Below are positions 45 to 8,177 of a DNA stretch of 8,177 nucleotides, in pieces (position 1 is the first letter of the stretch; each line of letters begins with the position of its first letter). Under the pieces are notes generated by a model, which had not been told where the DNA came from, made no database searches, and was given only the letters and a program-made list of their open reading frames with translations. This DNA comes from a virus (Duplodnaviria > Heunggongvirae > Uroviricota > Caudoviricetes): IMG/VR virus record IMGVR_UViG_2690316153_000010; one strand, 5' to 3'. The position numbers and the translations under genes were made by a program.

Positions 45-434
45 TCAGGCGGCTGCACCCGCCGTTTTCTCGTACTTACTGATAGTGATCTCGACCTTCC
101 CTTTCGGGATAACCGGTCCCCACTCCACCAGCATTCTTTTCACCTGACTGTCGTCTTCCCACACACCCGCATGGGTCAGGGCGTCAAACAGCGCCTTGTT
201 ATAGTTGTCCAGATCGCGGATCCGGTTATCCGGAGGAAACAACACGATCTCCACTGAAGCAGGTGCCGACGTTGGTTTCGGCAGACGACGTAACTGCTCA
301 ATGATGGCGGCACACGCCGCGCTCTGAAATTTTCGCCCCGCCTCGCTTATCAGGCTCTTACCAGCAAATGCCCCTTTGTTGGGGTGTCGCCAGTACGTGT
401 TCACGCTGGGCGGAAAAGGCAGTATTAGCTTCAT
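45..434 (-). CDS. rusA: RusA-family Holliday junction resolvase (copy 1)
   Basis: 129-aa ORF. Motifs LPFPPSVNTYWRH and DLDNYNKALFDALTHAGVWEDDSQV match the RusA endonuclease family as I recall it. ATGA start/stop overlap with the upstream methyltransferase gene. Confidence 0.88.
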   Translation of the reverse strand: MKLILPFPPSVNTYWRHPNKGAFAGKSLISEAGRKFQSAACAAIIEQLRRLPKPTSAPASVEIVLFPPDNRIRDLDNYNKALFDALTHAGVWEDDSQVKRMLVEWGPVIPKGKVEITISKYEKTAGAAA

Positions 435-1084
435 GCCACCATCTCCCTGACCAGTTTTTCCGCCTGCTGGCGAACCTGCGCCAGAAATGCCTCACCACAT
501 GCCTCAAGTTCATCGCGCCCGATGTAGCTGATTGCCGGTCCCTTCCAGGTCTTGTCGAAAACAGCAATAGCACCAGCGAAGAAAGCACCTGTTGGCACCT
601 GCTTTTCGTCTTTCGGGATAAACCAGGCAGGCAGTTCAAAACCAATACGCCCGCGAATAAAAGCAATATGATCTGCACCTTCCGGCCACCACACTTCGCC
701 GGTGGCAGCTTTGATCAGGAAAACATAGCGCCCGCCTTTATCACGCATGGCACTGGCATGCTTCATGATGTAACGCATGCCGGTGATGTATTGCCCCTCA
801 TGCTGACTGGCGCGGCTGTACGGGGGATTGCCAAAGGCAGCACCTTTAAGCTCCGCAAGACGTTCTGACCAGTCATGCGCCAGCGCGTTGTCTTCCGCCG
901 TGTAATACGCGGCACATTTGGCGTTATCACCGTCAGTGAACAGATCCAGAACAAACGGACCAAACAAGGTGTTAATTCCCCAGAAAATGTTGTCCGGCGT
1001 GCGCCACTGATCGCCCACTTCCTTCAGTTCATGGGCTGGTTTGTTCCGCAGTTCTACCAGCGCCTGGCAATATTTATTACTCAT
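431..1084 (-). CDS. Phage Dam-like N6-adenine DNA methyltransferase (copy 1)
   Basis: 217-aa ORF starting MSNKYCQ. Contains the NPPY catalytic motif (FGNPPYSR) typical of N6-adenine methyltransferases. TAATG overlap with the upstream remnant ORF. Confidence 0.8.
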   Translation of the reverse strand: MSNKYCQALVELRNKPAHELKEVGDQWRTPDNIFWGINTLFGPFVLDLFTDGDNAKCAAYYTAEDNALAHDWSERLAELKGAAFGNPPYSRASQHEGQYITGMRYIMKHASAMRDKGGRYVFLIKAATGEVWWPEGADHIAFIRGRIGFELPAWFIPKDEKQVPTGAFFAGAIAVFDKTWKGPAISYIGRDELEACGEAFLAQVRQQAEKLVREMVA

Positions 1085-1176
1085 TAAGCCCCCACGTAAA
1101 AAGCATCCGCAATGTCTCCGGAAGTACAGCCCGGATGGGCTTCAATGAATTTCTGAACGTCATTTAACAGACTCAT
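1084..1176 (-). pseudogene. 30-codon in-frame deletion remnant of the PerC-like gene found intact at 2992-3480
   Basis: Translates MSLLNDVQKFIEAHPGCTSGDIADAFYVGA. The first 26 and last 4 residues equal the termini of the 162-aa protein at 2992-3480. Copy-2 bases 3008-3403 (396 bp, 132 codons) are absent here. Confidence 0.5.
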
Positions 1177-1178
1177 GA

Positions 1179-1610
1179 TCACCCCCTGAATCCTGCCGGG
1201 ATCTGGCTGTAGTCCACGTTGTCGTAACTGGCTTTGAAGTACGGGTCTTCACGTTTTTCTGTGTGCGTGCTGACGGACGGCGATAAGCGCAGGGAAAGCT
1301 CATCCCATTTTTCCCGCAACTTCGACGGGCTGATCCACATTGCATAGGCATACACCAGTTCCTTGCAGACATACGTTCCCCGTTCATTTCCCCCATGAAT
1401 CACACTCACCGGGTCAACACCCAAATTCTGGGTGTTGGTCAATTCATGAACAAGCTCAACAGTTTGTTGGCTGGAAAGAAACTTTCCTGGCTCCTTGGTT
1501 CTGGCATTTGCACCAGATGCTACTGCTGCGCGATGCAGATCGTTCAGGCTGTAACGCCCATAAGCATCACGACGAACTTCAATACCATCAATGACCATCA
1601 GATTATTCAT
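1179..1610 (-). CDS. KilA-N domain protein, chimeric: KilA-N N-terminal domain fused to the C-terminal ~50 aa of the replication-initiator-like protein
   Basis: ORF 1179-1643 trimmed to the ATG at 1610, which has a GAGGAG RBS 9 nt upstream. GTYVCKELVYAYAMWISP resembles the KilA-N signature. Bases 1179 to about 1330 are near-identical to 3483 to about 3640. Confidence 0.7.
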   Translation of the reverse strand: MNNLMVIDGIEVRRDAYGRYSLNDLHRAAVASGANARTKEPGKFLSSQQTVELVHELTNTQNLGVDPVSVIHGGNERGTYVCKELVYAYAMWISPSKLREKWDELSLRLSPSVSTHTEKREDPYFKASYDNVDYSQIPAGFRG

Positions 1611-1629
1611 ACTTCGTTTCTCCTCTTGA

Positions 1630-2019
1630 TCAGGCGGCTGCACCCGCCGTTTTCTCGTACTTACTGATAGTGATCTCGACCTTCCCTTTCGGGATAACCG
1701 GTCCCCACTCCACCAGCATTCTTTTCACCTGACTGTCGTCTTCCCACACACCCGCATGGGTCAGGGCGTCAAACAGCGCCTTGTTATAGTTGTCCAGATC
1801 GCGGATCCGGTTATCCGGAGGAAACAACACGATCTCCACTGAAGCAGGTGCCGACGTTGGTTTCGGCAGACGACGTAACTGCTCAACTATTGCTGCGCAC
1901 GCCGCGCTCTGGAATTTGCGCCCCGCTGCGCTTATCAGACTCTTACCAGCAAACGCCCCTTTGTTGGGGTGTCGCCAGTACGTGTTCACGCTGGGCGGGA
2001 AAGGCAAGATCAGCTTCAT
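1630..2019 (-). CDS. rusA: RusA-family Holliday junction resolvase (copy 2)
   Basis: 129-aa ORF differing from copy 1 at 2 residues (E31A, I45V). Same motifs. ATGA overlap with the upstream LexA-like gene. Confidence 0.88.
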   Translation of the reverse strand: MKLILPFPPSVNTYWRHPNKGAFAGKSLISAAGRKFQSAACAAIVEQLRRLPKPTSAPASVEIVLFPPDNRIRDLDNYNKALFDALTHAGVWEDDSQVKRMLVEWGPVIPKGKVEITISKYEKTAGAAA

Positions 2020-2342
2020 ACTTTCAGGCCCCTCTCATGTAACCAGTGGGCTGCACGCAGCCTGGCGTTTTCCTCACCGGCAAGCAGTGCGCGGATAATC
2101 CCGACCGCCTCGCTGTCGTCGTCCTTCACCGCGGTATGAAGAGTTATCCCCCGGGCCACGCCACGCTTTATCGTGATGACGCCTTTTTTCTCCAGTGCGC
2201 GAAGATGCTCCACCGCTGCATTCACCGAACGGTATCCCAGCATGGTTGCCACCTCCTGATTGGTTGGCGGAAAGCCACGTTCTTGCTGGTAAGAAATCAG
2301 CATATCCAGCACCTGCTGCTGGCATTGAGTTAACGTCGTCAT
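2016..2342 (-). CDS. LexA N-terminal DNA-binding-domain-like protein with no S24 peptidase domain
   Basis: 108-aa ORF. Residues 4-66 (LTQCQQQVLDMLISYQQERGFPPTNQEVATMLGYRSVNAAVEHLRALEKKGVITIKRGVARGITL) align with the LexA winged-helix domain ([65 protein letters not shown]). No Ala-Gly cleavage site and no Ser/Lys dyad. ATGA overlaps at both ends. Confidence 0.7.
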   Translation of the reverse strand: MTTLTQCQQQVLDMLISYQQERGFPPTNQEVATMLGYRSVNAAVEHLRALEKKGVITIKRGVARGITLHTAVKDDDSEAVGIIRALLAGEENARLRAAHWLHERGLKV

Positions 2343-2992
2343 GCCGCCATCTCCCTGACCAGTTTTTCCGCCTGCTGGCGAACCTGCGCCAGAAAGGCCT
2401 CACCACATGCCTCAAGTTCATCGCGCCCGATGTAGCTGATTGCCGGTCCCTTCCGGGTCTTGTCGAAAACAGCAATAGCACCAGCGAAGAAAGCGCCTGT
2501 CGGCACCTGCTTCTCGTCCTTCGGGATAAACCAGGCTGGCAGTTCAAAACCAATACGCCCGCGAATAAAAGCAATATGGTCTGCATCTTCCGGCCACCAA
2601 ACTTCGCTGGTGGCAGCTTTGATCAGGAAAACATAGCGCCCGCCTTTATCACGCATGGCACTGGCATGCTTCATGATGTAACGCATGCCGGTGATGTATT
2701 GCCCCTCATGCTGACTGGCGCGGCTGTACGGGGGATTACCAAAGGCAGCACCTTTAAGCTCCGCAAGACGTTCTGACCAGTCATGCGCCAGCGCGTTGTC
2801 TTCCGCCGTGTAATACGCGGCGCATTTGGCGTTATCACCATCAGTAAACAGATCCAGAACAAACGGGCCAAACAGGGTGTTAATTCCCCAGAAAATGTTG
2901 TCCGGCGTGCGCCACTGATCGCCCACTTCCTTCAGTTCATGGGCTGGTTTGTTCCGCAGCTCCACCAGCGCCTGGCAATATTTATTACTCAT
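2339..2992 (-). CDS. Phage Dam-like N6-adenine DNA methyltransferase (copy 2)
   Basis: ORF 2339-3025 trimmed to MSNKYCQ at 2992 by comparison with copy 1 and the TAATG overlap with the upstream stop. 4 amino-acid differences from copy 1. NPPY motif present. Confidence 0.8.
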   Translation of the reverse strand: MSNKYCQALVELRNKPAHELKEVGDQWRTPDNIFWGINTLFGPFVLDLFTDGDNAKCAAYYTAEDNALAHDWSERLAELKGAAFGNPPYSRASQHEGQYITGMRYIMKHASAMRDKGGRYVFLIKAATSEVWWPEDADHIAFIRGRIGFELPAWFIPKDEKQVPTGAFFAGAIAVFDKTRKGPAISYIGRDELEACGEAFLAQVRQQAEKLVREMAA

Positions 2993-3480
2993 TAAGCCCC
3001 CACGTAATTCCCTGACAGATACCACTCTTCACCCGATGCAGCGCGCTTGCTGCTTTTCCGTAAACACCGCTCACGACGCGCAAGAAAATTGTTTCGCTCT
3101 TGCTGGGAGTGGCTTTCACGGAATGCCGCCATCCACACCGTTGCAGCACGACGGTATAAGCCCCTGGACTCCAGTTCTTCCGCCTGGCGGGTCAGGCACA
3201 AAATCACCCGGGGATCGTTAGTGCCGACATAGAAATTGCGCACAGGTCTGGATTCACGAACTGGTTGCGGTTCCGGCTCCTGCGGTATCTCAGTCAGCCG
3301 CGGGAAATGTCTGCGTGTATCCCCTTCACAACGGTGAGCCACACGCCCACTCTGACGTAACTTGCTTGCTGACTGCAGAACGCGCTGTCGTGAGTAACCT
3401 GCAAAAGCATCCGCAATGTCTCCGGAAGTACACCCCGGATGGGCTTCAATGAATTTCTGAACGTCATTCAAAAGACTCAT
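2992..3480 (-). CDS. Hypothetical regulator, possibly PerC-family-like
   Basis: 162-aa ORF (track ORF 2992-3486 trimmed to MSLL, since the upstream stop is at 3483-3485). The segment AEELESRGLYRRAATVWMAAFRES...ERNNFLARRERCL resembles the PerC-family motif as I recall it. Family assignment is tentative. Confidence 0.5.
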   Translation of the reverse strand: MSLLNDVQKFIEAHPGCTSGDIADAFAGYSRQRVLQSASKLRQSGRVAHRCEGDTRRHFPRLTEIPQEPEPQPVRESRPVRNFYVGTNDPRVILCLTRQAEELESRGLYRRAATVWMAAFRESHSQQERNNFLARRERCLRKSSKRAASGEEWYLSGNYVGA

Positions 3481-3482
3481 GA

Positions 3483-4424
3483 TCACCCCCTGAATCCTGC
3501 CGGGATCTGGCTGTAGTCCACGTTGTCGTAACTGGCTTTGAAGTACGGGTCTTCGCGTTTTTCGGTGTACGTGCTGACGGACGGCGATAAGCGCAGGGAA
3601 AGCTCATCCCATTTTTCCCGCAGCTTCGACGGGCTGAGCACGTTACGGCACCAGAACGGATCGCGACTGACGCGGCTGTACATCTCGCAGATTTGTTTAT
3701 GAGTACGACCATCCTGCACACACATCAGGCGAATTTCGTTTGCCCAGGCTGTCCAGTTCGGTTCTTTGGGACGAACCACCTCGCCGTCACATTCGGCGGC
3801 ATGCTCGTACAGGGCGATGATTTTTTTCCAGAGCCACTGTGCGCAGGTCAAATCATCCTGCGTCCCCCACTGGCGCTTTTTAGGGCTGAATACAACCGCA
3901 TCAGGATGGCGAGTTAAAAAATCCTGTTCAGCCGTCTGCGTGTCCGGTTGCGAAGCGTCCGGACGAGAAGTTTTTTTATCTGACGGATCATGTTTTGATT
4001 TTACTGACGGATCCCCACCAGATTCTGACGGGTGAAAACCCGCTTTTTTGCCAGATTTCGACGCATCAAATTTTGACGGGTCAGATTTTGATGCGTCAGA
4101 TTTTGACGGGTCAGAATCTGACAGTTGAGAAAATGCCGCTGCCTGAAGCTTCGCAACGTTAAGCTGATAAACATTCGACGCATTGCGGTTACCCTGGCGA
4201 CGCGCCCTACGCGTTAACCAGCCTTCTGCTTCCAGCCGTGCGATAGCCGTTCTGACGGTACTCATCCCCGCGCCAATCTGGCGGGCAATGGTTTCAATTG
4301 ATGGCCAGCACACACCTTCGTCATTACTGAAATCAGCCAGGCGGGCCATAATTGCCACGCTGGATAATTTCATGCCTGATGCAGCGCAACCATCCCATAC
4401 ATAGCCGGTTAATTTAGTGCTCAT
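3483..4424 (-). CDS. Replication initiator-like protein: N-terminal HTH/winged-helix domain, low-complexity DPSKS repeat linker, C-terminal tail shared with the KilA-N gene
   Basis: 313-aa ORF. N-terminal segment (GYVWDGCAASGMKLSSVAIMARLADFSNDEGVCWPSIETIARQIGAGMSTVRTAIARLEAEGWL) looks like the HTH domain of phage replication initiators. Internal tandem DNA repeats resemble lambda O-type iterons. Position downstream of cro/cII-like genes fits. Confidence 0.65.
   Translation of the reverse strand: MSTKLTGYVWDGCAASGMKLSSVAIMARLADFSNDEGVCWPSIETIARQIGAGMSTVRTAIARLEAEGWLTRRARRQGNRNASNVYQLNVAKLQAAAFSQLSDSDPSKSDASKSDPSKFDASKSGKKAGFHPSESGGDPSVKSKHDPSDKKTSRPDASQPDTQTAEQDFLTRHPDAVVFSPKKRQWGTQDDLTCAQWLWKKIIALYEHAAECDGEVVRPKEPNWTAWANEIRLMCVQDGRTHKQICEMYSRVSRDPFWCRNVLSPSKLREKWDELSLRLSPSVSTYTEKREDPYFKASYDNVDYSQIPAGFRG
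3975..4127. repeat. Iteron-like 15-bp tandem repeats (consensus AGATTTTGACGGGTC, core TGACGG); candidate origin of replication inside the initiator gene
   Basis: Five contiguous 15-bp units at 4053-4127, plus three degenerate copies at 3975-3989, 3996-4013 and 4021-4035 interspersed with A/T runs. In the coding frame they give the pentapeptide repeat DPSKS/DASKS. Confidence 0.6.
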
Positions 4425-4433
4425 GACCGACCT

Positions 4434-4772
4434 CTATTTCCCTGAATTTACGACGAAACTGTTCGAGCGGGCTGAAGCACTCATGCTCATAGCCTTCGCG
4501 GAGGTAGATAACACGTTGTGTTTCCGGCTCCCAACGAATGACTCTGACGGGCACTCCGTAGTGATCTTTGAACCAGCGGTTAACTTGTCGCAAAGGACTG
4601 TCTCCTTCTGCCGGTTGAAATCACCCACAGCCCACTCTGCAAAGCTGTGGGTTACAATTTCCCTGTCACCTGGTACATTCACTGCATAGCAATACTCCAC
4701 CTTCGCTTTTCCACCCGGTACAGGAAGCGCAATCAGTTGCGAGCGACGGTAGTGTGTTGTTAAACTGTTCAT
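4434..4772 (-). CDS. Hypothetical protein; C-terminal half may be out of frame (possible frameshift or pseudogene)
   Basis: 112-aa ORF with GGAGA RBS 9 nt upstream. The last ~50 residues are S/T/A-rich and low in complexity, while the -1 frame (4414-4620) is open for 68 codons, protein-like, and ends overlapping the next gene start. Confidence 0.4.
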
Positions 4773-5365
4773 GCGTTAGTTTCTCCACAGTCACGACACG
4801 CCACGGCGCCCGGAGCTGCACACTCGCGGGCGTCATTACTTTCTGAAATGCAAAAAATTTTGTAGACCAGTGCTGCATGCTCCTGCAGCTTCGAAATTGA
4901 GAGGTACAGCTCGTCGTTAATTGCTGTCTTCTCATGCGGTTCCACTACACCGTCTTCAATTGCTGAACGAATCTGTTTTGAATAACTGCCGATCTGTTCA
5001 ATGACTTCCAGCAGGCGCTGGTTAATATCGGCGTTGTCCACATCCTCGACGTCAGGAAGAGACACAAAGACGCCATTTGCAGACTGCGCCACAGCGTCAG
5101 CAATGAAGTGAGTTCCACCAGCACGTTGCAAAATCATTGCCCATCCCAGCGGGAAAATCTGATCGCCATCGGCACGAAGGCGGTTAAATAATGCGTTCTC
5201 TGTTACATCCAGCCAGTCAGCTGCTTCAGCGTAACCACCCGGCAACTTTGCGATAGTTTTTCTGACAGCTTTCACGTACCACTCAGGCTGTTTTTCTACT
5301 TTCCAGTGATGCTTACCCACGGTTAGCCTCATCGTTCTGTGGTTTCTGTTAATCGATTTATCCAT
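4769..5365 (-). CDS. CII/YdaT-like regulator (positional cII equivalent)
   Basis: ORF 4769-5434; start uncertain (candidate ATGs at 5365, 5377, 5332), chosen to limit overlap with cro. HTH-like segment [22 protein letters not shown]. Lies directly downstream of the Cro/YdaS-like gene. Family assignment by recollection only. Confidence 0.5.
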
Positions 5366-5558
5366 TAGATTTTTCATAAAGCTCAGGTTTAAATGGCAAC
5401 CGTCCGCAAGTTCTATATGCAGCTTCTGCTGCACGTCCTTTTGGAATTAACTGGCCCGGACGGTTTCGCCACTGATAAACGGCTTCAGTTGTTATGCCGA
5501 AAAAAGCAGCAACTTTCTCAATACTGCCGAAGTAGCTTTCGATATCGTCAGTTGTCAT
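5358..5558 (-). CDS. Cro/YdaS-like HTH regulator
   Basis: 66-aa ORF transcribed divergently from the repressor. GGAGGG RBS 4 nt upstream of the ATG. HTH-like segment SIEKVAAFFGITTEAVYQWRNR. Confidence 0.7.
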   Translation of the reverse strand: MTTDDIESYFGSIEKVAAFFGITTEAVYQWRNRPGQLIPKGRAAEAAYRTCGRLPFKPELYEKSNG

Positions 5559-5655
5559 ACGCCCTCCAAACTAAGTTTTGTTAGATGCTAATTACAAATC
5601 TATCTTTGGTCAATAAAAACTAAGATTACTTAGCGATTAAAGAAATGGTGCTCCT
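5559..5655. promoter_or_regulatory. Divergent immunity promoter/operator region (pR for cro, pRM for the repressor) with CTAA-N6-TTAG operator palindromes
   Basis: Operator-like sites CTAAGTTTTGTTAG (5571-5584) and CTAAGATTACTTAG (5620-5633), plus overlapping TTAGatgCTAA (5581-5591). Minus-strand -35 TTGACC (5608-5613) and, after a 17-bp spacer, -10 TAGCAT (5585-5590) upstream of cro. Confidence 0.5.
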
Positions 5656-6282
5656 ATGGAAACGGTTGGTCAGCGTATAAAAGCTCTGAGAAGAGTTACC
5701 AGAACGTCCCAGAAAGAATTGGGTAAATTTTGTGGAGTAAGCGACGTTGCTGTGGGGTACTGGGAGAAAGACATCAATACCCCTGGCGGGGAGGCACTTT
5801 CGAAATTAGCGAAGTTCTTCAATACGTCAATAGATTACATTCTTTACGGTGCTGAGTTTGAAGGCAAACTCGTCACAAACATGCGCAGAGTTCCTGTAAT
5901 ATCGTGGGTTCAGGCTGGGCAGTTTACTGAGTGCAGGGCAGCAGAAGTGTTTAGTGAAGTGGACAAGTGGGTAGATACATCATTAAAGGTTGGTGATAAC
6001 TCATTTGCATTAGAGGTTAAAGGTGACTCCATGACTAACCCTAATGGCCTCCCAACAATACCAGAAGGCGCAACAGTGATTGTAGATCCAGATGCAGAAC
6101 CTCGTCATGGAAAAATAGTCATCGCTCGACTTGATGGAACAAACGAAGCTACAGTAAAAAAATTAGTCATCGATGGCCCTCAAAAGTTTTTAGTGCCATT
6201 AAATCCTCGGTATCCCAACATCCCTATCAATGGTAATTGCCTTATCATTGGTGTAGTCAAAGGAGTTCAATACGAACTCTAA
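5656..6282 (+). CDS. cI-like prophage repressor: N-terminal XRE-type HTH plus C-terminal S24 (LexA-like) autopeptidase domain
   Basis: 208-aa ORF. HTH at the N-terminus, Ala-Gly cleavage site in WVQAGQF, catalytic Ser in KGDSM and Lys in TVKKL. Divergent from cro. Confidence 0.9.
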   Translation: METVGQRIKALRRVTRTSQKELGKFCGVSDVAVGYWEKDINTPGGEALSKLAKFFNTSIDYILYGAEFEGKLVTNMRRVPVISWVQAGQFTECRAAEVFSEVDKWVDTSLKVGDNSFALEVKGDSMTNPNGLPTIPEGATVIVDPDAEPRHGKIVIARLDGTNEATVKKLVIDGPQKFLVPLNPRYPNIPINGNCLIIGVVKGVQYEL

Positions 6283-6304
6283 GACCTCTCTTCTCTAACT
6301 AAGG

Positions 6305-6337
6305 CACCGAACCAAGAAAAGTTTGGTGTTTTCTCTT
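6305..6337 (+). terminator. Candidate intrinsic terminator downstream of the repressor gene
   Basis: Stem CACCGAAC (6305-6312) pairs with GTTTGGTG (6321-6328) including one G-U, with an 8-nt loop, followed by TTTTCTCTT. Confidence 0.35.
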
Positions 6338-6364
6338 GCCATGATAACTAAGTTAAGTTAGATT
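6336..6364 (+). promoter_or_regulatory. Candidate early-left promoter (pL-like) with overlapping operator (OL-like)
   Basis: -35 TTGCCA (6336-6341), 17-bp spacer, -10 TAGATT (6359-6364). The operator CTAAGTTAAGTTAG (6348-6361) has the same CTAA-N6-TTAG architecture as the cro/cI intergenic sites. Confidence 0.35.
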
Positions 6365-6447
6365 TTATATCAAAGATAACGAACAGGCAGGACGCCCACG
6401 AAGTAGCCGCCTGGGGCATATGAAGTCCAGGATGATTCGTTAGCAAC

Positions 6448-6471
6448 AAAAAAGCGCCCTACAGGACGCTT
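6448..6471 (-). terminator. Intrinsic terminator for the minus-strand gene 6510-7001
   Basis: On the minus strand: AAGCGUCC, loop UGUA, GGGCGCUU (8-bp GC-rich stem with one G-U), then a U-tract (plus-strand A-run 6448-6453). Lies about 40 nt past the stop codon. Confidence 0.55.
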
Positions 6472-6472
6472 A

Positions 6473-6485
6473 GCTCTTTAACAAT
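6473..6485 (+). promoter_or_regulatory. boxA-like antitermination motif (GCTCTTTAACAAT)
   Basis: 13 of 13 match to the core of the E. coli rrn boxA as I recall it (TGCTCTTTAACAATTTA). Plus-strand, downstream of the candidate pL and just after a hairpin. Confidence 0.4.
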
Positions 6486-6501
6486 CTGGATATCCACAAC
6501 A
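6483..6501. repeat. Left arm of a 19-bp inverted repeat flanking the gene 6510-7001
   Basis: AATCTGGATATCCACAACA; its reverse complement TGTTGTGGATATCCAGATT matches 7044-7062 at 18 of 19 positions. Core TGGATATCCA is itself palindromic. Confidence 0.6.
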
Positions 6502-6509
6502 GTAGTAAT

Positions 6510-7001
6510 CTACAGATTGCCGTTAAGTTTTCTGGACAACTCCTCAATGGATGGAGGCGATACGTAATCCGGATTTTTATTCATCAGAAACTTATTTTCA
6601 CAGTGGAGGCACCTGCTTTTATGAAAAAGCTCATCTTCGCTAACCGGGAATGGTTGAAGTATCGATACTATCTTTTGTCCAAAACATTTTGGGCAAAGAT
6701 GCATGGTTATGCTGCCACCGTTCACGATTACCTCCTTCGAGTATACAAAAGTACCCGACTCAAGTTGGTTAAGGATATAGCCTTCCGTCTGAGCCTCAAA
6801 GTTTTCGAATTCTGCAATTTTAGCTTTGAGAGAAGCATTTATTTCTTGATAAGAGCCCACCAGTTCAACGAGAGACACGCATTCGCGCTGAATAGACGCA
6901 AGCTTTGAGTTCAGCTCACCAATAGCCGCATTTACTTCAGCTTGAGTTTTTGCCTCGTTCATTAGTTTTGCAATCTGGGCTGTTTCACGAATAGCCGTCA
7001 T
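6510..7001 (-). CDS. Hypothetical coiled-coil plus zinc-ribbon protein (moron in the rexAB-equivalent position); function unknown
   Basis: ORF 6510-7289 trimmed to the ATG at 7001 (163 aa); an alternative GTG at 7025 has an AAGAG RBS. N-terminal heptad-like helical region, then CPKC and CLHC about 20 residues apart. AT-rich relative to flanks. Own terminator; opposite orientation to neighbours. Confidence 0.6.
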   Translation of the reverse strand: MTAIRETAQIAKLMNEAKTQAEVNAAIGELNSKLASIQRECVSLVELVGSYQEINASLKAKIAEFENFEAQTEGYILNQLESGTFVYSKEVIVNGGSITMHLCPKCFGQKIVSILQPFPVSEDELFHKSRCLHCENKFLMNKNPDYVSPPSIEELSRKLNGNL

Positions 7002-7043
7002 TGCTGCCGTTAATTCAGCGATCACATTGAATACTCTTATTGT

Positions 7044-7062
7044 TGTTGGGGATATCCAGATT
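7044..7062. repeat. Right arm of the 19-bp inverted repeat flanking the gene 6510-7001
   Basis: TGTTGGGGATATCCAGATT, an inverted match to 6483-6501. Sits 19-40 nt upstream of the candidate start codons of the minus-strand gene. Confidence 0.6.
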
Positions 7063-7072
7063 AACCGAATCC

Positions 7073-7093
7073 TTGTTGTTGGGGAATAACCAG
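7073..7093. repeat. Direct-repeat copy of the right inverted-repeat arm
   Basis: TTGTTGTTGGGGAATAACCAG versus TTGTTGTTGGGGATATCCAG at 7040-7059. The 13-bp core TTGTTGTTGGGGA is perfect in both, 33 bp apart. Confidence 0.5.
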
Positions 7094-7312
7094 GTCCACC
7101 TCGCCTGATGTGGCTAAAAGCAGGCACATAACAGCTAAGTATTTTCAACCAGAGAGAATCCTTAGCGTTGTGGTGAATGCGGCTCAGCGCACGCGGGTTA
7201 AGGTTGAGGCTGACAGTCGACCTTCTGTGGATACCCACCCGCCTGGTGTGCAACCTTCGCCAGGCACCGGGAGGCACCCGGCACCACAACTTTATGCTGT
7301 GTGTAGTCCTGG

Positions 7313-7359
7313 CGGTACCAGTTTGTACCCTTGCTTCCGGCTGGTACCGTCCTTTTTTG
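7313..7359 (+). terminator. Terminator-like hairpin in the GC-rich untranslated leader of the early-left operon
   Basis: CGGTACCAG (7313-7321) pairs with CTGGTACCG (7341-7349) around a 19-nt loop, followed by TCCTTTTTT (T-run 7354-7359). The large loop makes this tentative. Confidence 0.3.
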
Positions 7360-7495
7360 CAAAACAGAGAAGAGCATCACCGGACGACGGGCTCATAACC
7401 CAATCCATCCGGGCGGCTGCCACCGCAGGTGTTCTTCTCTGTTTTGTGGAGAAACCAACCGACCTTGCAGGGTCGATATGATGAGGAGCAGCAAA

Positions 7496-7858
7496 ATGGC
7501 TAGCGAACGCAGTACTGATGTGCAGGCATTTATCGGGGAGCTGGACGGCGGCGTATTTGAAACCAAAATCGGCGCAGTTCTCAGTGAGGTCGCTTCCGGT
7601 GTGATGAACACGAAAACCAAAGGGAAGGTCTCACTCAATCTGGAAATCGAACCGTTTGATGAGAACCGTGTGAAAATCAAACACAAACTCTCATATGTTC
7701 GCCCAACTAACCGCGGGAAAATTTCCGAAGAAGACACCACCGAAACGCCGATGTATGTCAATCGCGGTGGTCGCCTGACTATTCTGCAGGAAGACCAGGG
7801 ACAATTACTGACTCTTGCCGGTGAACCTGACGGAAAACTCCGCGCAGCAGGTCGTTAA
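7496..7858 (+). CDS. Hypothetical early-left protein (120 aa, hydrophilic, acidic)
   Basis: ORF 7331-7858 trimmed to the ATG at 7496, which has a GAGGAG RBS (7484-7489) 6 nt upstream. No arginine-rich N-terminus, so not N-like. Confidence 0.6.
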   Translation: MASERSTDVQAFIGELDGGVFETKIGAVLSEVASGVMNTKTKGKVSLNLEIEPFDENRVKIKHKLSYVRPTNRGKISEEDTTETPMYVNRGGRLTILQEDQGQLLTLAGEPDGKLRAAGR

Positions 7859-7923
7859 TATCGTTCGTAATAAACTGATTATTTATCTCATCACTGAATA
7901 TCTTTATATAGTGAGGACTTATT

Positions 7924-8177
7924 ATGTCTCAGAACTTAGACGCAACCGCAATTAATCAAATCCATGCCCTTATTTCTGCTCAGGGTGTTAATGAAATTAT
8001 CAGTAAGATTGGTGCCGATGCTGTGGCATTGCCTGAGAATTTCCGCATTCATGATCTGGAAAAATTTAATTTAAATCGCTTCCGTTTCCGTGGTGCGCTT
8101 TCCACTGCCAGCATCGATGACTTTACCCGTTATTCTAAAGATCTTGCAGATGAAGGCACCCGCTGCTTTATCGATGC
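7924..8177 (+). CDS. Hypothetical early-left protein, 3-prime truncated by the window edge
   Basis: ATG at 7924 with a GAGGA RBS upstream. Open to the end of the window (84 codons seen). AT-rich. Confidence 0.5.

Follow-up and report, generated by a model that had tools for sequence, protein, structure and literature searches.

Introduction

Lambdoid phage genomes are mosaics, and in the Hendrix/Juhala model the novel joints of this mosaicism arise from illegitimate or short-homology recombination. Short-homology-dependent illegitimate recombination in E. coli was reportedly characterized by the Ikeda laboratory on lambda bio and Spi- phages, in which the identities used are said to range from 4 to 13 bp. 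KilA-N domains, for their part, are said to combine with many partner domains, a view attributed to Iyer, Koonin and Aravind in 2002. The illegitimate origin of mosaic joints is weighed against relaxed homologous recombination by De Paepe et al. (2014, PMC3945230), who argue that illegitimate events are much rarer than the homologous events driven by recombinases. O-like HTH_36 proteins with a DnaT-type C terminus, such as DopC, are known among replication initiators (Brezellec et al. 2017, PMC5509034).

The locus described here contains a short reading frame in which the beginning of a KilA-N protein is fused to the end of a phage replication initiator, and it either exemplifies this known process or is an assembly artefact with the same appearance. 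In our view it probably records one recent illegitimate recombination, the partners being E. coli lambdoid prophage or phage genomes that are closely related to each other and have early regions of the CPS-53/SfV/mEp460 type. Like the joints of the lambdoid mosaic, it connects related genomes without extended homology, within coding sequence and with synteny otherwise kept, and the sequences involved are those of E. coli phages or cryptic prophages. Unlike most documented mosaic boundaries, which are seen after selection and lie at or near gene borders, it has the form of a raw product: it is 1.6 kb off register, carries duplicated genes and a fusion, and is represented by one instance. As in the formation of lambda bio and Spi- phages, the junction lies on an identity of about 10 bp, within the range given above; those phages, however, result from phage-host joins on excision, whereas here homologous phage modules are joined out of register.

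The encoded protein can be compared with the families of its two parts. Its N-terminal 93 residues are identical to those of the 269-aa KilA-N protein (PF04383) of mEp460 and cdtI-type phages, but unlike in other KilA-N proteins the replacement C terminus is a fragment of a replication protein, as a search with the tail indicated. This tail consists of the last 50 residues of a lambda-O-like initiator (PHROG 391; compare the 272-aa protein of SfV/mEp460); unlike such initiators, the chimera has no origin-binding N-terminal domain and retains only the last helix of the C-terminal domain.

Results

Gene content of the window

The window, that is, the whole stretch of DNA that was analysed, is 8177 nt long and is the entire contig CYED01000074.1 of a short-read draft assembly of E. 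coli (GCA_001284965.2). It contains the early region of a CPS-53/SfV/mEp460-like lambdoid prophage. A divergent cI/cro pair lies upstream, and all of the genes discussed here are on the minus strand, in the order Cro, CII-like YmfL, DUF4222, 313-aa initiator, PerC, Dam-type methylase, a protein with a LexA DNA-binding domain, RusA, the KilA-N ORF, a second methylase and a second RusA. The features on which the argument depends are as follows (A-type and B-type refer to the two prophage variants, A and B, with which the window is compared below):

45-434, minus strand: RusA resolvase, A-type copy; bases 1-301 of the window are an exact repeat of 1586-1886
431-1084, minus strand: Dam-type N6-adenine methyltransferase, A-type copy, the contig's second; 97% identical to 2339-3007, with the exact protein present in A-type prophages
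1084-1176, minus strand: PerC gene remnant of 30 aa, in frame, which came with the A-type segment (sequence and junction comparison)
1179-1610, minus strand: chimeric ORF of 143 aa (CTX95474.1), KilA-N domain plus initiator tail (ORF list, Pfam, PHROG)
1179-1323, minus strand: 3' part of the chimera, from the A-type 330-aa initiator allele, with the last helix of the C-terminal domain, the linker and the terminal motif (SNPs, AlphaFold model)
1324-1333, minus strand: junction, the 10-nt microhomology TCAGCCCGTC (minus-strand reading), encoding SPS (three-way alignment)
1334-1610, minus strand: 5' part of the chimera, from the ordinary 269-aa KilA-N gene of prophage variant B (genome and phage matches)
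1630-2019, minus strand: RusA resolvase, B-type copy, immediately upstream of the chimera (Pfam RusA)
2339-2992, minus strand: Dam-type methyltransferase, B-type copy (Pfam Dam, E = 3e-44; gene call of 217 aa)
2992-3486, minus strand: intact PerC-family gene (Pfam PerC), its first 80 nt repeated at 1099-1178
3483-4424, minus strand: 313-aa replication initiator with an HTH_36 N-terminal domain and a C-terminal domain of ~160 aa (Pfam HTH_36; PHROG 391)

The 313-aa initiator matched PHROG 391, 'replication initiation O-like', over its full length (E = 5e-135). Initiators of this kind have a winged-helix domain (HTH_36) at the N terminus in addition to their C-terminal domain, and a candidate iteron array lies within their genes. 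No Rfam family matched the window, and a PADLOC scan for defence systems around the chimeric ORF returned nothing relevant. A scan around the same ORF revealed neither promoter-like nor minus-strand terminator-like sites, and the ORF is therefore placed inside one long rightward operon.

Three colinear repeat blocks

The preliminary description of this DNA reported that positions 1179 to about 1330 are nearly identical to 3483 to about 3640, that the similarity stops abruptly inside both reading frames, and that the KilA-N protein consequently ends with about 50 residues of the initiator. All three observations were borne out by self-BLAST and alignment. Positions 1099-1333 and 3403-3637 are identical at 228 of 235 sites without gaps (E = 3e-112), the coding parts (1179-1333 and 3483-3637) at 151 of 155, and the protein tails of the chimera and the 313-aa initiator differ by a single residue (H/Y). 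Beyond 1333 and 3637, identity drops at once to the random level.

On its other side the repeat runs 80 nt past the stop codon (1099-1178 corresponding to 3403-3482) and enters the start of the PerC gene. The block 1099-1333 is the third of three colinear repeat blocks, each 96.5-97% identical. The RusA block pairs 1-434 with 1586-2019 and contains 15 mismatches, the first 301 nt being exact, and the Dam methylase block pairs 431-1099 with 2339-3007 and contains 20 mismatches. The extension into PerC and the RusA and methylase blocks had been overlooked in the preliminary description.

The contig joins two prophage variants

Positions 1334-8177 of the window are 99.9% identical, in one colinear piece, to variant B prophages in several complete genomes (FDAARGOS_1059, O111:H2 12A). 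Variant B is a common E. coli prophage in which KilA-N is full length (269 aa), and its gene order is initiator (313 aa), PerC, Dam methylase, LexA-like gene, RusA, KilA-N (269 aa), DUF968 and Q; some genomes contain B as a cryptic remnant. Positions 1-1333 are 99.85% identical to, and colinear with, variant A prophages, from which the 330-aa initiator, the PerC remnant, the Dam methylase and RusA are recognized. The order in parent A is initiator (330 aa), PerC remnant, Dam methylase, RusA and KilA-N, without the LexA-like gene, and the PerC remnant is an annotated pseudogene in the A-type prophages L005 and L006.

The segment 1324-1700, comprising the 5' part of KilA-N and RusA, is common among 5,426 complete E. 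coli genomes at 99.7-100% identity, and it also matches full-length KilA-N genes with RusA in phages mEp460 and cdtI. All of these matches end at 1324, and the gene there goes on as the 269-aa KilA-N, followed by DUF968 and Q. In the contig, parent B supplies positions 1334-8177 and parent A positions 1-1333. The two genomes are otherwise syntenic, with break points that are offset by about 1.6 kb, and it is because of this offset that the methylase and RusA genes are duplicated and a PerC remnant is present.

The origin of the tail can be read from its variable sites. Counting the 10-nt junction, positions 1179-1333 are identical at 155 of 155 sites to the 330-aa initiator gene (O330) of L005, compared with 151 of 155 for the 313-aa gene of the window; the tail agrees with the 330-aa allele at every site at which this differs from the 313-aa gene, and therefore the 313-aa gene was not the donor. 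The pattern points to the 330-aa 'O' initiator allele of variant A as the donor, arriving with its downstream genes. The earlier suggestion that recombination within the initiator gene had made a new fusion thus stands as far as the union of KilA-N with an initiator 3' end is concerned, but not for the 313-aa gene as its source.

The join lies on a shared 10-mer

In a three-way alignment of the chimera, the normal KilA-N gene and the initiator gene, the switch from KilA-N to initiator sits in TCAGCCCGTC. This is the sole 10-mer common to the 810-nt KilA-N gene (position 277) and the 993-nt O330 gene (position 838); it encodes Ser-Pro-Ser, and the codon phase is equal in both parental genes. 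Across the junction, an intact KilA-N gene would continue into ...TCATTCCATCTGAAGG and an intact initiator gene, followed from the other side, into ...CGTAACGTGC. Among shuffled sequences, 42% share at least one 10-mer, so the existence of one shared 10-mer is unremarkable in itself; what matters is that the join coincides with it. This 10-nt identity guided the joining. The join has the properties of a microhomology joint, with the two parents recognized at 99.85% and 99.9% identity, the switch contained within TCAGCCCGTC and the flanks at random-level identity.

Codon ~93-95 of the KilA-N gene of B would thereby have been joined to codon ~280 of the initiator gene of A through TCAGCCCGTC. 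The most likely course would be a single microhomology-guided exchange between a B-type element and an A-type relative, possibly an unequal crossover of co-resident genomes. With equal likelihood, a replication template switch may have led from KilA-N of B into the A-type initiator, with a return via the RusA/KilA-N homology. Either way, the product would read B-type RusA, KilA-N 5' part fused to initiator 3' part, PerC remnant, A-type methylase, A-type RusA and, presumably, an intact KilA-N gene.

Such a repeat-insert-repeat structure, with an exact RusA repeat of at least 301 nt, could be resolved by homologous recombination. The fusion would accordingly be expected to be short-lived, because recombination between the flanking RusA repeats would delete it, and ready deletion of this kind fits its occurrence as a singleton.

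No recurrence of the fusion

Among about 15 billion proteins, the 143-aa fusion forms a cluster of one member, whereas the cluster of the 313-aa initiator has 5,414. The junction was not found in 5,426 complete E. coli genomes or in phage records, and no copy of the exact 32-nt junction pattern was present in the contig collections searched, which covered genomes, viruses and metagenomes. No match was obtained for the reciprocal junction (initiator 5' part to KilA-N 3' part) with a search tool whose output for short queries was confined to short proteins and which elsewhere missed even the abundant 313-aa initiators.

A database search with the 50-aa tail alone, as the preliminary description had recommended, placed it in 28 clusters (full HMMER scan, 1.84 billion representatives), and the chimera itself was the only KilA-N context among them. 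The idea of a chimera presupposes that the tail is no regular part of KilA-N proteins. In this prophage group, KilA-N proteins normally have 269-280 aa and end without it; with these tail-less parents and no second KilA-N context among the representatives scanned, a tail that is a fixed part of KilA-N proteins was ruled out. The fusion is a one-off join, or perhaps an error of assembly, and not a recurring protein design.

Other irregular products of the same region exist. The databases contain further sporadic fusions or deletions of the same initiator domain (P0094, P0098/P0099, P0015 and P0006), and finished genomes contain other deletion scars in the same gene row, for example PerC::RusA and PerC beside KilA-N. 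One-off rearrangements, or assembly chimeras, are ordinary in this region.

Cellular recombination or assembly

The two-parent composition, the exact junction, the uniqueness in databases and the cut inside the initiator domain hold whether the join is a real event or an artefact. The existence of the join in a cell, and not just in an assembly, is what we infer, together with the mechanism of joining. There is a smaller, though appreciable, chance that the A-type and B-type prophages are separate and that finishing software merged an extension of KilA-N with the edge of an A-type initiator contig through the shared 10 nt.

Several properties of the record favour such a merger. The join is carried by one short-read draft contig alone; the window is the whole of this contig, and both of its ends are broken in sequence shared by related prophages. 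The contig crosses the exact repeat and breaks off in the second copy after 301 nt, and it is at such places that scaffolding and gap filling operate. Either side is about 99.9% identical to a common and intact prophage variant, and the fusion was found in no other collection searched. The exact 330-aa initiator, CTX96270.1, follows CTX95474.1 by only 796 accession numbers, so that one genome may contain both, the initiator being intact. The style of the accessions, the naming of products and an apparent sorting of contigs by size would be in keeping with the Sanger Velvet/SSPACE/GapFiller pipeline. GapFiller by default merges the extensions into a scaffold gap at a minimum overlap of 10 nt, checked after each added base (PMC3446322), and the overlap here is exactly 10 nt, the closing threshold.

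On the other hand, a merger needs a false scaffold link to begin with, as over 1.4 kb separates the KilA-N 5' region from the initiator 3' region in each of the parents, and with two separate prophages no read pairs should link both regions. The contig edge would also have to hit the sole shared 10-mer, for which a rough estimate gives less than 1e-3 per false gap, and an overlap of 10 nt is too short for a path in a de Bruijn graph. Real illegitimate joints are, moreover, frequent in this region of finished genomes.

Predicted product of the chimeric ORF

Under the preferred reading, in which the join arose by recombination, the fusion is a gene with a potential product. Its start codon is most likely the ATG at 1610, which is preceded by GAGGAG and yields 143 aa; the GTG at 1643 given in the mechanical ORF list is probably unused. 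The fusion ORF would be expressed, because it keeps the native KilA-N ribosome-binding site and is located in the rightward early operon.

The chimera matched Pfam KilA-N (PF04383) with 65.3 bits (E = 5e-18; gathering score 23.8 bits) over residues 18-107 of the 154-aa reading, equivalent to 7-96 of the 143-aa protein. Profile coverage was 5-92 of 107, compared with 5-105 in the parental 269-aa protein, and the domain is incomplete, as the junction drops the last ~13 profile positions. PHROG 129 and 8274, which represent nin-region KilA-N regulators of full length (mEp460 gp48 type), were likewise matched over residues 1-96 only, whereas in the parental protein they extend over residues 1-267 and 1-220, respectively; the normal C-terminal KilA-N region of ~175 aa is missing from the chimera.

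PHROG 391, by comparison, matched only residues 94-143, corresponding to profile positions 252-298 of 298. [quoted passage not shown] The chimera has no DnaT DNA-binding domain (Pfam PF17948).

In a structure model of the chimera, the KilA-N part was predicted with moderate confidence, and residues 99-143 of the tail had pLDDT values below 50 and made no contact with the KilA-N domain, the underlying alignment being without depth over the tail. The product would comprise a KilA-N DNA-binding domain that is slightly shortened, a single helix separated from its original domain, a flexible linker and the end peptide of the initiator. We infer that the chimera arose as a by-product, neutral or mildly deleterious in effect, rather than as a designed protein; it would be made and would presumably have no function.

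The end of the initiator resembles that of DnaT

The terminal peptide has relatives beyond the two parental initiators. In SfV/mEp460-type phages, the replication protein of 272 aa differs in its C-terminal domain, yet its last 24 residues are identical (REDPYFKASYDNVDYSQIPAGFRG), and the DNA identity with its gene begins 72 nt before the stop codon and extends into PerC. The last ~24 residues are thus common to three initiator types with different C-terminal domains. More distant initiators (P0096 and P0103) retain the helix SPSKLREKWDEL, a variable linker and the end motif FK.SY..DYSQ(I/V)P.GFR(G/S).

E. coli DnaT ends in ...SEPDSQIPPGFRG. SQIPAGFRG of the initiator tail and SQIPPGFRG of DnaT are identical at eight of nine residues and terminal in both proteins (BLASTP E = 0.004 for this single pair). 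The last 22 residues of DnaT matched the C-terminal ends of PHROG 18526, 3729, 6451 and 1701, and the 272-aa protein matched PHROG 18526 and 3729 through to their ends, which provides a transitive link to DnaT; PHROG initiator families also matched the C-terminal domain of DnaT together with its tail. The Pfam DnaT domain was not detectable in the 313-aa initiator, and a fold search found no DnaT. The initiator end resembles DnaT in a short sequence motif only, which we do not take as membership of the family.

No lambda-P-like or DnaC-like loader gene adjoins the initiator in these phages. In preprimosome structures from 2026, the folded C-terminal domain of DnaT lies on PriA and the recruitment of DnaB-DnaC is left unexplained (PMC13377028); the last ~20 residues of DnaT do not figure in the passages on these points. 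From the motif it is reasonable to suppose that the terminal peptide is a putative host-contact motif. A bolder proposal, to which we assign a low likelihood, is that the last ~24 residues (REDPYFKASYDNVDYSQIPAGFRG) would form a portable, DnaT-type docking peptide that is complete in itself, by which the loader-less initiators of the SfV/mEp460/CPS-53 kind would enter the host primosome via DnaB-DnaC, PriA or PriB.

The 50-aa tail is not a module

The preliminary description had offered, as one possibility, that the tail is an exchangeable module, perhaps for interaction with the host replisome. The 313-aa and 330-aa initiators are almost identical over their last ~160 residues, and their N-terminal halves look unrelated. 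AlphaFold predicted the C-terminal region as a helical domain (mean pLDDT 76), and in this model the cut immediately precedes the final helix (H111-125 of 159 residues), with a low-confidence linker and the terminal peptide following. Because the cut lies inside the ~160-aa C-terminal domain of the initiator, the 50 aa are not a module. The cut respects the domain boundaries of neither protein; it was made on the sole 10-nt identity, and no other KilA-N protein carries the tail. The proposal of an exchangeable 50-aa module is therefore not upheld, and that of contact with the host replisome may apply to the last ~24 residues, with their occurrence in three initiator types and their DnaT-like end, but not to the whole tail.

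A stronger version, which we consider very unlikely, would make the tail a portable replisome-docking module and the fusion a selected functional protein that, for example, brings a host replication factor to KilA-N sites or titrates it there. It draws on the constancy of the last ~24 residues after differing preceding domains, on the helix, variable linker and end motif retained in distant initiators, and on the resemblance to DnaT, both in the eight of nine terminal residues and in the PHROG initiator ends that the last 22 DnaT residues share with the 272-aa protein. The fusion is, in addition, in frame and retains its ribosome-binding site, and KilA-N domains are known for many partner domains. 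Against it stand the singleton status, with no sign of spread or selection, and a junction that is set by microhomology and not by a domain boundary, so that both domains are cut. The redundant methylase and RusA copies alongside are as expected for an unselected unequal exchange, and the low pLDDT and missing KilA-N contact of the tail point the same way, this being a weaker argument as the alignment is without depth there.

The least tenable explanation is a local duplication, in which the 3' end of the 313-aa gene (3483-3637) would have been copied into the prophage's own KilA-N gene, ~2.3 kb downstream: the two segments share strand and contig and are 97% identical, as the preliminary description implicitly assumed in pairing them, but the SNP pattern rules this out for practical purposes, given four differences in 155 coding positions (7 in 235 overall) from the neighbour with the A-type allele matched each time, in a segment that is colinear over 1333 nt with A-type features (the PerC deletion, the lack of the LexA-like gene, and the methylase and RusA SNPs).

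Discussion

If the recombination between the two prophage variants is real, the locus provides a clean and datable piece of the raw material of phage mosaicism, with both parents known at ~99.9% identity and the crossover pinned to 10 nt. It would be an out-of-register product that still retains its duplication and an in-frame fusion ORF. The illegitimate-recombination model predicts such intermediates, but selection or deletion between repeats eliminates them, so that they are seldom observed. If the join is instead an artefact, it shows that gap closures on 10 nt can yield plausible 'domain fusions' in public protein databases, where this one has the accession CTX95474.1.

A biological lead of more use, and one independent of the fusion, is the conserved C-terminal peptide that several initiator families share with host DnaT in phages without a helicase loader of their own. 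Should this peptide prove to be a docking peptide, this would account for its retention after three differing initiator C-terminal domains as well as at the DnaT end, and the fusion would represent a natural experiment in which the peptide has been placed on an unrelated DNA-binding domain, where it may tether or titrate a host factor.

Replication gene and candidate origin

The viable phages mEp460 (L030, NC_019716.1), SfV and cdtI, for which loci L030 and L001 were compared, share the same gene row. Because each carries one replication gene, with no helicase or helicase-loader gene found in that row, gene content suggests that the initiator of these phages must engage the host DnaB-DnaC, either alone or via host primosome proteins.

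Within the initiator gene itself, a 15-nt unit, CAGATTTTGACGGGT, is present in 4-5 tandem head-to-tail copies (window 4019-4126) and encodes the linker PSKSD/ASKSD; the number of copies differs between alleles (for example, in database protein P0099). A 20-nt inverted repeat (4019-4038/4101-4120) overlaps this array. Together, the repeats at 4019-4126 look like a candidate iteron-type origin, comparable to that of lambda O, where an iteron-type origin likewise lies inside the initiator gene.

The initiator C-terminal domain from which the chimera's tail derives was also observed in further putative one-off fusions among database proteins (P0094, P0098, P0099, P0015 and P0006). The types represented are an initiator C-terminal domain behind an unrelated N-terminus, a lambda tail-tube/Big_2 protein joined to the initiator after ...TEKRED, an HTH domain linked to the last 30 residues by an internal deletion, and a PerC C-terminus fused with the initiator tail.

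Variable genes of the early region

Three further features of the window concern genes that are reduced or that vary between prophages:

1084-1176, minus strand: PerC remnant of 30 aa, in frame, with 132 codons deleted
2016-2342, minus strand: LexA-DNA-binding-domain gene of 108 aa, between the methylase and RusA genes
6510-7025, minus strand: ORF of 171 aa with weak coiled-coil-type matches only in Pfam

The deletion joint of the PerC remnant shows a microhomology of only 1 nt, and the remnant is common across A-type prophages, in which it is annotated as a pseudogene. The LexA-like gene, flanked at both edges by ATGA start/stop overlaps, is a presence/absence cassette, being found in copy B and missing from copy A. 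The 171-aa ORF, for which PADLOC gave no match, is exactly enclosed by a 26-nt inverted repeat (6483-6508/7037-7062, 85% complementary). Because A-type prophages hold a ClpX-type zinc-finger gene in its place between cI and yfdP, the region 6483-7062 looks like a moron slot.

State of the parental prophages

The closest B-type parent, a prophage of E. coli FDAARGOS_1059 (L029, NZ_CP066032.1), is a cryptic remnant in which Q is followed by a porin gene and the integrase is partial; codon 202 of its full-length KilA-N gene (L029 2468-3277) is an internal stop. For the A type, the exact 330-aa initiator occurs intact as CTX96270.1, 796 numbers after the chimera (CTX95474.1) in the same submission series. 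This protein may belong to the same genome as the chimera or to the next genome of the project; if it shares the chimera's genome, an intact A-type prophage coexists there.
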